DNA of 7,280 nucleotides from a virus (taxonomy: Duplodnaviria; Heunggongvirae; Uroviricota; Caudoviricetes), in the IMG/VR virus record IMGVR_UViG_2700989509_000014. The stretch is one strand, 5' to 3'. Under the pieces are notes generated by a model. The model was not told the origin of the DNA and did no database searches. It was given only the letters and a program-made list of their open reading frames with translations. The translations under genes were made by a program, and so were the position numbers. Shown piece after piece: positions 2,710 through 7,280 of the stretch (position 1 is the stretch's first letter; the number at the start of each line of letters is the position of its first letter).

Positions 2710-2823
2710 TGCTTAACCTTTATAACGAACTGAATATTCGGCAAAATATTGTTTTTAGGTATTGGCTGCTGTGCTTGTCGGACGGTTATTTCGTGTCACC
2801 CAAACGTTTCTTCTGGCCACTGG

Positions 2824-3531
2824 TTACCAGCTATGTGATGACCAGAATACTCTGCCAATAATCCTTACTGTTTCATGAAACTCATCTCTATCCATTACTT
2901 CATCAGGGTACTCTTCGCGATTTATTGATCTGATTATCACGGATGTAGGTGTGGCTATTAATGTCTTTACTCTTAGTAAATCAGATTGACAAATAGCGTA
3001 GGTTTTACCATCTCTGATGGTGGTGTCTTGCGTGTTGACTCCAACAACATCACCATCGTGAAGGGTTGGCTCCATGCTTTGGCCTATCACCCTAACCAGC
3101 TTGGCAGAGCTTTCAGATACCCCCATCTTTTTCAGATAGTACTTTCTGAAAACCAAAGAGAACTCAGATGATTCCTCTAACTCACAGCTACCACTCCCGG
3201 CGGAAAGAGAAACATTAAGAAGAGGCAATGCGACAAACTCGTCATCGTTTCTTTTTATGTCCTCCCATACCACCGCTTTTAAAGATGACTCACGCACATT
3301 CGATGGCTCTTCATGTGCACCATCCCTCATTTCACCAATACCTGAGCTAAGCCATTCAGGGCGTACTTTTAAAGCATTGGCTAACTCAACCATCTTTCGA
3401 GATCCGTTTGTTTTACCGGATGACATCTTCTGTATGGCTGGCTGAGATATTCCAACCATGTCAGCAAGCTGTGATTGTGACACCCCTGCTGAGCTCATGG
3501 CTGCATTTAGTCTTTCTGCGAATGTTTTCAT
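2824..3531 (-). CDS. cI: Phage CI-like repressor (N-terminal HTH, C-terminal S24/LexA-type autopeptidase), 235 aa from ATG 3531
   Basis: HTH segment SQSQLADMVGISQPAIQKM. Ala-Gly candidate autocleavage site (LSAGSG). Ser nucleophile in GQSMEP and a downstream Lys (LLRVKTL), as in LexA/CI S24 peptidases. Divergent from a cro-like gene across an operator region. The ORF track starts at a TTG (3561), but that extension would overlap operator site 1; the ATG at 3529-3531 (MKTFAERLN…) is the more likely start. Confidence 0.85.
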   Translation of the reverse strand: MKTFAERLNAAMSSAGVSQSQLADMVGISQPAIQKMSSGKTNGSRKMVELANALKVRPEWLSSGIGEMRDGAHEEPSNVRESSLKAVVWEDIKRNDDEFVALPLLNVSLSAGSGSCELEESSEFSLVFRKYYLKKMGVSESSAKLVRVIGQSMEPTLHDGDVVGVNTQDTTIRDGKTYAICQSDLLRVKTLIATPTSVIIRSINREEYPDEVMDRDEFHETVRIIGRVFWSSHSW

Positions 3532-3543
3532 ACCCACAAATCT

Positions 3544-3606
3544 ATAACTACGGTTATCCAAAGTAAAATAACAAAGGTTATTGCTATTTTTTATAACTTG
3601 AGTTAT
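3544..3606. promoter_or_regulatory. Tripartite operator (OR-like): three perfect ATAAC-N4-GTTAT palindromes between the divergent cI and cro genes; overlapping pRM/pR-type promoters inferred
   Basis: Exact sites ATAACtacgGTTAT (3544-3557), ATAACaaagGTTAT (3568-3581) and ATAACttgaGTTAT (3593-3606), spaced 24 and 25 bp start to start, like lambda OR3-OR2-OR1. Candidate rightward promoter TTGCTA (3581-3586), 17-bp spacer, TATCTT (3604-3609), or alternatively a -10 TATAAG at 3614-3619. Candidate leftward -10 is TATAGA on the minus strand (plus 3541-3546). Promoter hexamers are guesses; the palindromes are exact. Confidence 0.65.
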
Positions 3607-3642
3607 CTTTGGTTATAAGTAATGTCCACAAGAGGTATGCTC

Positions 3643-3867
3643 ATGAATTTAGTAATTCAACGAGCCTTGAAAATTGTCGGTAGCCAAAAGCGCCTTGCCG
3701 ACAAGTGTGGTGTAACGCAGCCAGCAGTACATAAATGGCTGAAAGGCGGGTTGGTCTCTCCAGAGAAAGTTACCGCCATCGTTAACGCCACAGGAGGGCA
3801 GATCAAGGCTTACGAAATCCGCCCAGATTTGCCACACCTGTTTCCAAAACCGAATCAGGCAGCATAA
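3643..3867 (+). CDS. cro: Cro-like small HTH regulator (YdaS/Cro family), 74 aa from ATG 3643
   Basis: First rightward gene opposite the repressor. HTH-like segment QKRLADKCGVTQPAVHKWLKG followed by AIVNATGG, which resembles YdaS/Cro-type proteins. AGAGG at 3631-3635 sits 7 nt before ATG 3643; the upstream in-frame ATGs at 3622 and 3637 lack a properly spaced RBS. Stop TAA at 3865-3867. Confidence 0.65.
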   Translation: MNLVIQRALKIVGSQKRLADKCGVTQPAVHKWLKGGLVSPEKVTAIVNATGGQIKAYEIRPDLPHLFPKPNQAA

Positions 3868-3874
3868 GTAACAC

Positions 3875-3909
3875 CGCTCTTTATCAATCTGCACCGCCGA
3901 CAACGCGGT
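3875..3909 (+). promoter_or_regulatory. nutR-like antitermination site: boxA-like CGCTCTTTATCAA followed by a boxB-like hairpin
   Basis: CGCTCTTTA (3875-3883) matches the boxA core (GCTCTTTA / CGCTCTTA). Ten nt downstream is the hairpin ACCGC-cgacaac-GCGGT (3893-3909), a 5-bp stem whose loop contains GACAA, which I recall as the P22-type boxB loop. It lies immediately 3' of cro and 5' of cII, where nutR sits in lambda and P22. Confidence 0.5.
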
Positions 3910-3973
3910 AACTAATTAAGCGCTCATCGAAAGATGGGTATTAGTGATTATTTACCTATGGAAATAGTAAGAA

Positions 3974-4273
3974 ATGGAACAAACAAGTTACAGCAAACTA
4001 TCACAGCGCGACGTTGATCGCGCAGAAACAGATTTACTCATCAACCTGTCAACGCTTACACAGCGCGGTCTGGCAAAGATGATTGGCTGTCATGAATCGA
4101 AGATAAGCAGAACGGACTGGAGATTTATTGCTTCGGTCTTGTGTGCTTTCGGAATGGCATCAGACATCAGTCCGATTAGCAGGGCTTTTAAGTATGCGCT
4201 TGATGGACTCACCAATAAAAAACGCCCGGTGTGCAAGACCGAGCGTTCTGATCAAATACAAATGGAATTTTAA
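3974..4273 (+). CDS. cII: CII-like transcriptional activator (lambda CII homolog), 99 aa
   Basis: C-terminus LTNKKRPVCKTERSDQIQMEF closely matches the lambda CII C-terminus (…ILTNKKRPAATERSEQIQMEF); a central HTH-like segment is present; position after cro/nutR is canonical. Stop TAA at 4271-4273. Confidence 0.8.
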   Translation: MEQTSYSKLSQRDVDRAETDLLINLSTLTQRGLAKMIGCHESKISRTDWRFIASVLCAFGMASDISPISRAFKYALDGLTNKKRPVCKTERSDQIQMEF

Positions 4274-4295
4274 CAACATCCAACGAGGTAATTAT

Positions 4296-4568
4296 ATGCG
4301 AAACAAAGGCTTTAATCCACCTGATACACACAAAGAAGCTAAGCGTTTGCGCTTCCTTCGTTCCATTGATGAAAGAACTCAAATCTCTTTTGTGAAAGTT
4401 GCCAGAACTGAGCTTCTGAAGGCTGAGGCGAGGGCGTTGCTCCCGTCTCTACCAAAAGAGGAGGGATATACGTCCATTCCAAACGCATTTCTGGAAAAGC
4501 TGCTCAAAGAAGACATATCCGTAAGTCAGTTTAACGATGTTCTTAAGGTCTTTCGTCAAGGCAGGTAG
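4296..4568 (+). CDS. Small hypothetical protein (90 aa) between cII and the O-like gene
   Basis: ATG at 4296 preceded by GAGG (4285-4288) with a 7-nt spacer; ends with TAG at 4566-4568, 2 nt before the O-like start. The ORF-track entry 4128-4568 is the same frame extended upstream across cII and is not the real N-terminus. Basic and charged, no recognisable motif. Confidence 0.55.
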   Translation: MRNKGFNPPDTHKEAKRLRFLRSIDERTQISFVKVARTELLKAEARALLPSLPKEEGYTSIPNAFLEKLLKEDISVSQFNDVLKVFRQGR

Positions 4569-4570
4569 TT

Positions 4571-5518
4571 ATGAGCAATACAGCAAAAATCTACGATTTC
4601 AGCGCCGCACACGAGCGCAGGAGCAACAGGATGGAGAACCAGAAAACTGGTTACATTCCGTTGTACCGGAGCATTCTGAAACAGTCATGGGCGAAAGATG
4701 TTTATCTTCGCACCCTGTGGGAAAACCTTCTCCTGAATGCCGCCAGAAAGCCATACAAAGCGAATTTCAAAGGTCATGAATGGCATCTGCAACCCGGTCA
4801 ACTGGTTGTGACAGCAGCTGATTTAGGTCTTCAGTTATGCGACAGGCATGGCAAGCCAGCAAGCCGCGATCAGGTTGAGCGGATGCTTCAGGTTTTTGTG
4901 AAAGAGGGGGTGATCACCATTGATGGAGAGAAGCAAAAAGGTCGTGTGATTACCATCACAAATTACCATGAATATGCTCAAAAAATGGACGATTCACCCG
5001 CACATGAAGCCGCACAAACAACCGCACATGATGCCGCACATGACGAAGCCAGCAATGGCGCGGCTTTCAGAGTACATGCCGCACATGAAAGCGCACATGA
5101 AGCCGCACAAACAACCGCACATCATGAACAAGAAGGTATTAACAAGAATATAAATAATACCCCCCTACCCCCCAATGGGGGAGGCGATGGGCAGGTTAAA
5201 CCTGAACGTCGCAAGGCAGAACGAATCGACTACGAATCCTTCCTGAACGCCTACAACACCGAAGTCGGTGGCAGACTTCCACACGCTGTTGCGGTCAACG
5301 AGAAACGCAAACGCCGCCTGAAGAAAATCATCCCGCAACTGAAAACGCCAAACGTGGACGGTTTCAGAGCGTATGTCAGGGCGTTTGTACATCAGGCCAA
5401 GCCGTTTTACTTCGGAGACAACGACACGGGCTGGACGGCTGATTTTGATTACCTGCTGAGGGAAGACTCGTTAACGGGAGTTCGGGAAGGGAAGTTTGCA
5501 GACAGGGGGATTGCATGA
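4571..5518 (+). CDS. Replication initiation protein, lambda O-like N-terminus with a conserved phage replication-protein C-terminal region, 315 aa; carries the origin iterons internally
   Basis: N-terminus [11 protein letters not shown]… parallels lambda O (MTNTAKILNFG…). A His/Ala-rich linker is encoded by the iteron repeats. Directly followed by, and overlapping by 4 bp with, a DnaB-family helicase gene (P22 gene 18 / gene 12-type arrangement). Confidence 0.75.
4998..5181. repeat. Putative phage origin of replication: iteron array, AT-rich tract and C/G palindrome inside the O-like gene
   Basis: A 31-bp perfect direct repeat cgcacatgaagccgcacaaacaaccgcacat at 4999-5029 and 5092-5122. At least eight copies of the 10-mer (c/g)cgcacat(g/c)a between 4998 and 5123. 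Then an AT-rich stretch (5125-5159, …aacaagaatataaataata…), then C6-TA-C6-AAT-G5 (5160-5181). The organisation mirrors ori-lambda, which also lies inside O. Confidence 0.6.
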
Positions 5519-6891
5519 AACAGGATATCGAAGCGAGCGTTATCGGTGGCCTGCTGATTGGTGGATTAACACCAACTGCCAGTGACGTTCTGGCAACGCT
5601 GGAGCCGGAAGCGTTTTCAATTCCGCTCTACCGGAAAGCCTTCGAGGTTATCCGCAAGCAGGCGCGAAACAGAAACCTAATCGACGCGCTGATGGTTGCC
5701 GAGGCGTGCGGAGAGGAGCATTTCACGTCAATCCTGATGACCAGTAAGAACTGCCCGAGTGCCGCAAACCTGAAGGGATATGCCGGAATGGTCGCGGATA
5801 ACTATCACCGCCGCCTGGTGCTGGAAATCATGGATGAAATGCGTGAACCAATTCAGAGAGGAACCATCGATACATCGAGTCAGGCGATGGACGAGCTTGT
5901 AAAGCGTCTTTCAGCCATCAGAAAGCCCCGTGACGAGGTTAAACCTGTACGGTTAGGGGAAATCATCACTGACTACACTGACACGCTTGACAGGCGCCTG
6001 AGGAACGGAGAAGAGTCAGATACCCTGAAGACCGGAATCGAAGAACTTGATGTCATCACCGGAGGGATGAACGCGGAAGACCTGGTGATTATCGCCGCTC
6101 GTCCTGGTATGGGGAAAACCGAACTGGCGCTGAAGATTGCCGAAGGTGTGGCAAGCCGCGTTATTCCTGGTTCTGACGTCCGGCGCGGGGTATTGATTTT
6201 CTCAATGGAAATGAGCGCATTGCAGATTGCAGAGCGAAGCATTGCCAACGCCGGGAGGATGTCGGTTAGCGTGCTGCGAAATCCTGCATCGATGGATGAC
6301 GAAGGCTGGGCGCGTGTTGCTAACGGCATGAGTCAGCTTGCAGATTTGGATGTATGGGTAGTCGATGCCTCGCGGTTATCGGTCGAAGAAATACGCTCAA
6401 TCGCAGAACGGCACAAACAGGAAAATCCAAACCTGTCACTCATCATGGCGGATTATCTTGGCCTGATTGAGAAGCCGAAAGCAGACCGCAACGACCTCGC
6501 AATTGCTCACATCTCCGGAAGCCTGAAGGCGATGGCGAAAGACCTGAAAACGCCTGTTATCTCCCTGAGTCAGCTTTCGCGCGATGTTGAGAAGCGACCA
6601 AACAAACGCCCGACAAACGCAGATTTGCGTGATTCAGGAAGCATTGAGCAGGACGCAGACTCAATCATCATGCTCTATCGGGAAGCGGTATATGACGAGA
6701 ACAGTAGCGCCGCACCATTTGCTGAAATCATTGTGACAAAAAACCGTTTTGGCTCGCTTGGTACGGTTTACCAGCGGTTCTGCAACGGACACTTTGTTGC
6801 ATGTGACCAGGATGAAGCCAGAAAGATTTGCACAGCATCAAATGCACCCGCTGCACGTGGCAGACGATATGCACAAGGGGCTGACGTATGA
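5515..6891 (+). CDS. Replicative DNA helicase, DnaB family (phage-encoded), 458 aa
   Basis: Walker A in [11 protein letters not shown], Walker B-like [10 protein letters not shown], and DnaB C-terminal motifs ([40 protein letters not shown]). DnaB-like N-terminal domain (…[11 protein letters not shown]…). ATG 5515 overlaps the O-like stop (ATGA). Confidence 0.9.
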
Positions 6892-7157
6892 ATAAAAAAC
6901 AATTAGCCATTCTCGAAAAGGCATGGGATGCACAAATATCATGCGCTTTGAAAGAACAGGCACTACCAATAATCCAGACCAAATCGAAAATAGCCAGGCA
7001 GTTATGCGATGACGGATTCCTGAACGAGGTTGAGATTACGCGCCAGATGGTAACGTTCAAAGGGTATGAGATAAATCATCATGGTATAGCGGCGTATTGC
7101 TCCCATCTTCCTGATGACGTTGACATTGATGAAATGGAAAGGGAGATGAAGCAATGA
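6888..7157 (+). CDS. Small hypothetical phage protein (89 aa), translationally coupled to the helicase
   Basis: ATG 6888 overlaps the helicase stop (ATGA); AAGGGG lies 7 nt upstream; acidic C-terminus; no recognisable motif. Confidence 0.55.
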
Positions 7158-7182
7158 CCATCTACATCACTGAGCTAATAAC

Positions 7183-7214
7183 AGGCCTGCAGGTAATCGC
7201 AGGCCTTTTTATTT
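7183..7214 (+). terminator. Rho-independent terminator after the replication operon (tR2-like position)
   Basis: AGGCCTGC (7183-7190), loop aggtaatc, GCAGGCCT (7199-7206), an 8-bp stem, followed by TTTTTATTT (7206-7214); it begins 26 nt after the stop of the 6888-7157 ORF. Confidence 0.7.
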
Positions 7215-7280
7215 GGGGGAGAGGGAAGTGAACGATAGCTACCGACAGTTTGAAAACTGGTGGTCAAAAGACAGAGGCGC

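Follow-up and report, generated by a model that had tools for sequence, protein, structure and literature searches.

The DNA analysed here, a stretch of 7,280 nucleotides referred to below as the window, comprises the whole of a 7.28-kb draft contig (JZEB01000030.1, assembly GCA_000965715.1) that ends in IS66-family (ISEc8) sequence. Its contents outlined a lambdoid immunity and replication region, with genes encoding a cI-type repressor, Cro, CII, an O-type initiator and a DnaB-type helicase, a group of operators between cI and cro, and the site of interest between cro and cII. The features discussed throughout are the following:

1-1052: IS66-family (ISEc8-like) sequence, with the 3' part of a transposase up to an IS terminus at 876, followed by 877-1052
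2824-3531, minus strand: cI-type repressor, 235 aa, with HTH and S24 peptidase domains, divergent from cro
3544-3557, 3568-3581 and 3593-3606: OR operators, three exact instances of ATAACN4GTTAT, between cI and cro
3643-3867, plus strand: cro, 74 aa, first rightward early gene, with weak matches to the Pfam Cro, P22_Cro and HTH families
3875-3883, plus strand: boxA, CGCTCTTTA (extended form CGCTCTTTATCAA, 3875-3887)
3884-3892, plus strand: spacer of 9 nt between boxA and boxB, TCAATCTGC
3893-3909, plus strand: boxB (right), with a 5-bp stem formed by ACCGC (3893-3897) and GCGGT (3905-3909)
3911-3945, plus strand: second stem-loop (RNAfold), outer stem 3911-3916/3940-3945
3974-4273, plus strand: cII, 99 aa, first gene past nutR, matching Pfam Phage_CII
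7183-7216, plus strand: intrinsic terminator, stem-loop AGGCCTGCAGGTAATCGCAGGCCT (7183-7206) followed by the T-rich tail TTTTTATTTGG

The closest complete relative was Escherichia phage SH2026Stx1, with 98.7% identity across window positions 2796-4231 (cI-cro-nutR-cII), and from position 3855 onward an identity of approximately 98% was also observed with many Stx2a-converting phages. In SH2026Stx1 the counterpart of cro is annotated as a transcriptional repressor, and that of cII is CII-like. Exact matches to the operator sequence were detected only between cI and cro. Based on the analogy with the PL arrangement in SH2026Stx1, the rightward promoter PR was assigned to putative hexamers lying within these operators (-35 TTGCTA, 3581-3586; -10 TATCTT, 3604-3609); PR was not reported by the consensus promoter scan. 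An additional operator-like sequence (ATACAATTGGTTAT, 1122-1135), with two mismatches to ATAACN4GTTAT, is located in the interval that separates the cI-distal genes from the IS, and is conserved in SH2026Stx1 upstream of the PL operators.

Several other elements of the region were observed alongside the site. Downstream of cI, in the position of rexAB, two minus-strand genes (1205-2134 and 2131-2709) encode a protein of 309 aa without a Pfam family and a DUF6932 protein of 192 aa. This pair is 98.6-98.9% identical to genes located beside a lambda-type cI/Cro (237 aa and 66 aa) and is absent from SH2026Stx1; it looks like a mobile, cI-linked two-gene cassette, possibly with an exclusion or defence function. 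Antisense to the 3' end of cII, the minus strand contains a strong intrinsic terminator (4249-4219; 12-bp stem, then TTTTTT), located where lambda and P22 have the terminator of their oop RNA. Within the O-type replication gene (4571/4631-5518), about eight 12-bp units (CCGCACATGAAG and variants) form two clusters at 4986-5140. These units also encode a repetitive peptide segment, the stretch that contains them has no match to SH2026Stx1 and, by analogy with lambda, they are probably origin iterons inside the initiator gene. The intrinsic terminator at 7183-7216 comes after an 89-aa ORF (6888-7157) of the rightward operon, and its hairpin (7183-7206) coincides with a weak, sub-threshold match to the Rfam Trp_leader family at 7106-7212.

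Read directly from the window, the sequence spanning the end of cro and the site is ...GCA TAA gtaacac CGCTCTTTA tcaatctgc ACCGC CGACAAC GCGGT aactaattaag.... The site starts 7 nt past the cro stop codon (3865-3867) with boxA, which presents an exact core GCTCTTTA at 3876-3883, matching the GCUCUUUA-type core recognised by NusB-NusE. Recognition by NusB-NusE involves 8 nt of BoxA (PMC3177189), and boxA on the PR transcript would be expected to constitute a binding site for NusB-NusE (S10). The 9-nt spacer shows no dyad symmetry on direct reading of its sequence and leads to boxB, a short hairpin of 17 nt (ACCGCCGACAACGCGGT as DNA, ACCGCCGACAACGCGGU in RNA form) that begins a few nucleotides 3' of boxA. 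The loop of this hairpin, CGACAAC (3898-3904), encompasses the GACAA pentaloop sequence (3899-3903), flanked on either side by an unpaired C (C3898 and C3904), and the 5-bp hairpin was present in both the minimum-energy and the centroid structures computed by RNAfold for the intergenic RNA. The start of cII lies 65 nt 3' of the boxB hairpin, and the order along the window is thus operators (3544-3606), cro (3643-3867), site (3875-3909) and cII (3974-4273). A scan of both strands of the window for the composite of boxA and a GAxAA hairpin returned this single occurrence. The preliminary description of this DNA had proposed a near-consensus boxA and an adjacent hairpin with a 5-bp stem and a cgacaac loop including GACAA, immediately downstream of cro and spanning 3875-3909; all these elements were recovered, and the proposed interval brackets them exactly.

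Taken one by one, the parts of such a site have limited statistical weight. A single boxA core is present in the window, where 0.28 would be expected, and 46 of 200 shuffles contained one or more copies. Likewise, the intergenic region as a whole (108 nt) has an unexceptional fold (RNAfold, z = -1.41), and a permissive Rfam scan of the whole window identified no family at the site, with four sub-threshold chance matches elsewhere. Furthermore, of the matches across the whole collection to boxA-N15-GACAA in a relaxed form, most have a stem that is not fully paired. Thermodynamic and motif statistics are by themselves weak, and they leave room for chance in the single parts. The same does not hold for the site as a whole. 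The composite boxA-N15-GACAA occurs once in the window and was matched in just 2 of 200 shuffles, and comparison of positions 3875-3908 with the nutR feature of the curated P22 record (BK000583, 31937-31970; CGCTCTTTACCAATCTGAACCGCCGACAACGCGG) revealed 32 identical bases out of 34, in the same cro-cII context, indicating that the site is more than a chance assembly. At least 120 viral contigs carry the same composite, which co-occurs with N and nutL as detailed below. Given this homology, the proposition that a short GC-rich hairpin and a boxA-like word merely happen to lie together in an intergenic region can be considered refuted, and we assign it a negligible probability.

Relative to P22, the window has T instead of C at 3884 and C instead of A at 3892; these are the two mismatched positions, and both belong to the spacer. 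The boxB hairpin, ACCGC-CGACAAC-GCGGT, is 100% identical in P22, ES18, L and BTP1, and the alignment of these four phages with SH2026Stx1 and the window showed boxA, the entire hairpin and the larger part of the spacer to be invariant. The ES18 record annotates nutR over the same 34 nt, boxA being where the curated features start, and sensitive blastn searches using positions 3860-3975 as the sole query returned P22-group Salmonella phages. A comparison with catalogued boxB sequences, which had been suggested as a check on the hairpin, hence identified it as the boxB half of the nutR annotated in P22 (BK000583) and ES18. A text search of papers returned no instance of the boxB-right sequence, which rests on these GenBank features. 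Judged from its sequence, the site is the P22 allele of nutR, a more specific designation than merely nutR-like.

The distribution of this allele was analysed by scanning IMG/VR for boxA-N10-CCGCCGACAACGCGG, which identified at least 120 contigs. Among the matches listed, the exact P22 37-mer was present in 63 and the exact 37-mer of the window in 49. Co-occurrence with the other components of the system was assessed in the 73 contigs, among the matches listed, with at least 3.5 kb of readable upstream sequence. A leftward nutL, combining boxA with a P22 boxB of the GCGCUGACAAAGCGC type, was observed in 70 of these 73 contigs among the matches listed, and an ORF with a P22-type arginine-rich N motif in 66 (exactly GNAKTRRHERRRK in 64); in the remaining seven of the 73 contigs among the matches listed, the P22-type N motif was missing within 7 kb upstream.

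The survey also bears on the two unpaired C residues that flank GACAA. A control scan that kept the spacing but required a base other than C ahead of GACAA yielded just 92 sites in the whole collection, two of which have a fully paired 5-bp stem around GACAA, and four more have 4 of 5 pairs. This indicates that a loop flanked by C and C is the norm for this nutR lineage and does not constitute a defect. Formally, the loop is a heptaloop, and on sequence comparison this is the normal state of the P22-type boxB-right, with no deviation in the window. On the 3' side of the invariant boxB, the contigs (at least 120) fall into at least seven unrelated sequence classes. The same nutR was hence found beside at least seven downstream sequences and several types of cro, showing that the nut module travels as a unit, independently of immunity specificity.

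The identity of the loop points to the class of N protein involved. GACAA is the pentaloop of the solved complex of the P22 N peptide with boxB (PDB 1A4T), in which the C is looped out and the remaining bases adopt a GNRA-like fold (PMC12550061). The peptide in question is NAKTRRHERRRKLAIERDT and its boxB RNA GCGCUGACAAAGCGC (PMC11480772), and the gp24 proteins of P22 and L have been described as interchangeable, with identical boxBs in nutL and nutR (PMC8022706). The N protein of SH2026Stx1 opens with MTVIVYGKSTFAGNAKTRRHERRRKLAIERD and is identical to P22 gp24 through the arginine-rich motif, GNAKTRRHERRRKLAIER, which is the same in both proteins. The PL leader of this phage carries a nutL (GGCTCTTTAAC-TTCGATGTG-GCGCTGACAAAGCGC) that matches the nutL of P22. 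The boxB hairpin of the window would thus be expected, by analogy, to constitute the RNA bound by the arginine-rich motif of a P22-class N. At the position adjoining the loop, boxB-right has a C-C mismatch where the solved boxB-left has U-A. Cocozaki et al. 2008 reportedly describe a preference for U:A or A:U there; if so, N may bind boxB-right more weakly.

The N gene of SH2026Stx1 (4086-4427, minus strand of L001) presents an organisation of its own. The first 40 residues of its product, arginine-rich motif included, belong to the P22 gp24 type, and the C-terminal half aligns with the lambda N of the solved antitermination complex 6GOV. On the basis of both alignments, this protein is a mosaic of a P22-type RNA-binding head and a lambda-type tail.

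A second stem-loop was predicted immediately downstream of boxB, at 3911-3945 (-11.6 kcal/mol, z = -2.59; RNAfold). Its inner stem pairs GCTCATC (3922-3928) with GATGGGT (3933-3939) around a GAAA loop. In seven classes with unrelated downstream sequence (the window type, the P22 type, the L/BTP1 type and four others), a stable hairpin starts 9-16 nt past boxB, with energies from -8.7 to -16.2 kcal/mol and z values from -1.9 to -4.7, and for six of these classes no more than 4 of 200 shuffled sequences folded equally well. Across these classes the form of the hairpin is kept and its sequence is not, with loops such as CAACGA, UGUAUU, CCAC, GAGA and others in the relatives. Variation within the class of the window mostly preserves pairing, through G-U/A-U switches and one double change from U-A to C-G, and one variant (six contigs) carries a mismatch; a test for covariation in the second hairpin of this class gave a weak, non-significant result. 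Hairpins at the equivalent place after nutL could not be statistically distinguished, and the P22, ES18 and lambda records contain no annotation for the second hairpin. At the corresponding place, lambda presents the dyads ACACC-TAT-GGTGT and GTATGCA-TTTATT-TGCATAC.

The presence of a true GNRA loop in this second, more stable hairpin brings up the question of which of the two hairpins is boxB. A nutR with two hairpins, of which one lies within the spacer, has been described for H-19B (PMC3526286), and the window could by this precedent be read with the lambda-like GAAA hairpin at 3922-3939 as the real boxB and the GACAA hairpin as an H-19B-like spacer "reducer". The details of H-19B speak against this assignment, since the boxB of that phage, UCGCUGACAAAGCGA, is itself of the GACAA type, and its spacer hairpin is another sequence lying between boxA and boxB. 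Furthermore, the curated nutR features of P22 and ES18 end at the GACAA hairpin, which is invariant among the relatives, whereas in the second hairpin neither sequence nor loop is kept. The co-occurring N carries the P22 motif, the solved target of which is GACAA, and the nutL sites of the relatives share the GACAA hairpin and have no GAAA loop. The GAAA hairpin was hence rejected as boxB on the basis of the H-19B oligonucleotides, of the curated P22 and ES18 features and of its own lack of conservation, and we regard this assignment as highly improbable. With the GACAA hairpin retained as boxB, the stem-loop at 3911-3945 is probably a separate tR1-type or post-boxB structural element. There is a tentative possibility, which we rate as somewhat doubtful, that the post-boxB stem-loop is a distinct functional element of P22-class nutR regions, in which case it could act as a pause or release hairpin of tR1, or as a structure tuning the assembly of the N complex.

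The operation of a P22-class nutR implicitly entails an N protein, and the preliminary description had pointed out that no N gene is present in the window. This was borne out by searches of both strands of the window, in which no N homologue, nutL or second nut site was found. In SH2026Stx1, the sequence equivalent to window position 1053 onward leads within approximately 20 bp into the PL operators, and then into nutL and N. The IS element can hence be located just outside OL/PL, and the contig stops where PL, nutL and N would lie; N may be intact beyond the IS or may equally be gone. The IS region has itself a composite structure. At 876, one IS copy reaches its terminus and is joined directly to the interior of another copy, of which the last 176 bp, up to the opposite terminus at 1052, are present (877-1052). 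The junction at 876/877 may represent either the nesting of one IS within another or a join made within repeats during assembly. In E. coli 13E0725 (L014), a prophage with lambda immunity carries an independent ISEc8 insertion close to OL, with a target duplication. That two such insertions occur in almost the same location beside OL hints at a target region preferred by the element.

This arrangement raises the alternative that the site is a nutR by descent but a functionless one, a relic in a defective prophage whose PL, nutL and N have been deleted or detached by IS66-family activity, and in which the PR transcript would stop at tR1 and at later terminators. The position at which the draft contig ends in the IS is precisely that expected for OL/PL, nutL and N, the IS region is rearranged, with the terminus at 876 set against an internal point of another copy, and the window lacks an N homologue and a second nut site, all of which are in line with such a loss. 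However, the terminus at 1052 lies about 20 bp outside the equivalent of the outermost PL operator in SH2026Stx1, and a simple insertion there would spare PL, nutL and N on its far side; the comparable ISEc8 insertion of E. coli 13E0725, with its target duplication, has an intact N beyond it. Moreover, no degenerative change was detected in nutR, the 37-mer of which is identical in 49 other viral contigs among the matches listed, and the reading frames of cI, cro, cII, O and the helicase are uninterrupted. We consider it unlikely, on balance, that the site is such a relic. A related proposal, an IS-mediated deletion of N, nutL and PL derived from the BLAST comparison with SH2026Stx1, was withdrawn, as the IS of SH2026Stx1 is located elsewhere; it is also undercut by the position of the IS terminus just outside the operators and by the window being a complete contig. 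The place to seek the N gene of this prophage is beyond the IS element, and a prophage missing N would likely be locked out of delayed-early expression.

The sequence identity with P22 nutR, the genomic position, the predicted hairpin and the near-constant co-occurrence with N and nutL observed in related phages support the interpretation of positions 3875-3909 as the P22-allele nutR of a lambdoid prophage, working by P22-class N antitermination, a reading to which we assign a probability of roughly 0.9. The preliminary description had identified GACAA as the P22 boxB pentaloop and had predicted from it N-type processive antitermination of the rightward operon and a P22-class N specificity. 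The first point agrees with the solved complex (PDB 1A4T; PMC12550061, PMC11480772); the specificity is supported by the N motif and nutL of SH2026Stx1 and, among the matches listed, by nutL in 70 and the N motif in 66 of the 73 contigs, and antitermination as an interpretation is consistent with the identity with P22 nutR and with the layout of the region.

According to this reading of the site as a P22-class nutR, transcripts would start at PR, approximately 260 nt upstream, and run through cro, so that the RNA would then carry boxA (CGCUCUUUA), the 9-nt spacer and boxB (ACCGC-CGACAAC-GCGGU). The boxB loop would present GACAA in a GNRA-tetraloop-like fold, with the C flipped out, to be bound by the bent alpha-helical arginine-rich motif of a P22-class N (GNAKTRRHERRRKLAIER), while boxA would recruit NusB-NusE (S10) and NusA would sit on the spacer together with N. 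The resulting complex of N and Nus factors, tethered to the RNA, would render RNA polymerase resistant to termination, enabling it to pass the tR1 region, which lies between nutR and cII, and then later terminators, such as the intrinsic terminator at 7183-7216, a candidate target for the N-modified RNA polymerase. The predicted outcome is full expression of cII, of the replication genes and of the nin region. The same RNA would also contain the Rho loading site of tR1, as in H-19B (PMC3526286) and in lambda, where rutA and rutB flank boxB. For the binding of N and Nus factors, the read-through of terminators and the overlap with Rho utilisation, this model draws on what has been established in lambda, P22 and H-19B. 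In terms of annotation, the site would mark the rightward early operon of this prophage as dependent on a P22-class N, as in many Stx- and P22-type phages; its significance beyond correct annotation is small.

Three characterised systems provide the context for this assignment. The nutR of lambda (J02459, 38265-38281, with rutA and rutB on either side) is identical to the window in architecture and spacing, and both regions are colinear nucleotide for nucleotide through the cro stop codon, the 7-nt gap, boxA, the 9-nt spacer and boxB. They also share a boxB with a 5-bp stem and a GNRA-like pentaloop, followed by further dyad symmetries and then by cII, and by analogy the likeness would extend to function as N-dependent processive antitermination. 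In contrast, the lambda boxA (CGCTCTTA) is one T shorter, and the lambda boxB (GCCCUGAAAAAGGGC) has the loop GAAAA, with its fourth base extruded. The loops characteristic of the lambda class, GAAAA or GAAGA, were not found at the site, where the loop is GACAA. The arginine-rich motif of lambda N is likewise of another sequence, and this difference between N proteins sets lambda and P22 apart as distinct specificity classes.

The Shiga-toxin phage H-19B, the nutR of which has been studied by the Friedman and Sen laboratories, shares with the window an E. coli Stx-phage setting, a similar cro-proximal flank (CATAAGTAACACCGCT...) and a boxB with a GACAA loop, given as UCGCUGACAAAGCGA in an oligonucleotide table (PMC3526286); the antisense oligonucleotides in the supplement of the same paper yield TCGCTGACAAAGCGA, also of the GACAA type. 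The nutR of this phage has been described as a site where N binds boxB, NusA and Rho bind the spacer, and antitermination shares its RNA with the loading of Rho at tR1 (PMC3526286). Its boxA is degenerate (CGCTATTTT), whereas that of the window is a consensus boxA, and a U-A pair closes its loop at the position occupied by C-C in the window. The main difference lies in the spacer, which in H-19B is long (CACAATGGACATTCGTCCTACG, oligonucleotide RS663) and contains a stem-loop of its own, GGAC-AUUC-GUCC, in contrast with the short, unstructured spacer of the window. A dyad between boxA and boxB of the H-19B "reducer" type was not found in the 9 nt that separate these elements here. The N protein of H-19B reportedly has a reduced requirement for Nus factors, a result attributed to Neely and Friedman in 2000.

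The closest correspondence is with the nutR of P22, which has the same boxA (CGCTCTTTA), a spacer of the same 9-nt length, the same 17-nt boxB (ACCGCCGACAACGCGGT) and an equivalent position between cro and cII/c1. The relatives of the window site also carry the same partners, namely a gp24-type N motif and GCGCUGACAAAGCGC in nutL. Besides the two substitutions in the spacer, the differences lie around the site: the sequence 3' of boxB is unrelated to that of P22, with another second hairpin and another cII leader; cro and the repressor of the window are of a different immunity specificity, defined by the ATAACN4GTTAT operators; and the window carries replication genes of the type seen in E. 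coli Stx phages, against the background of a mosaic prophage of E. coli type. Set within that background, the site itself corresponds to an ordinary and already well-characterised P22-type nutR, with nothing new in kind.
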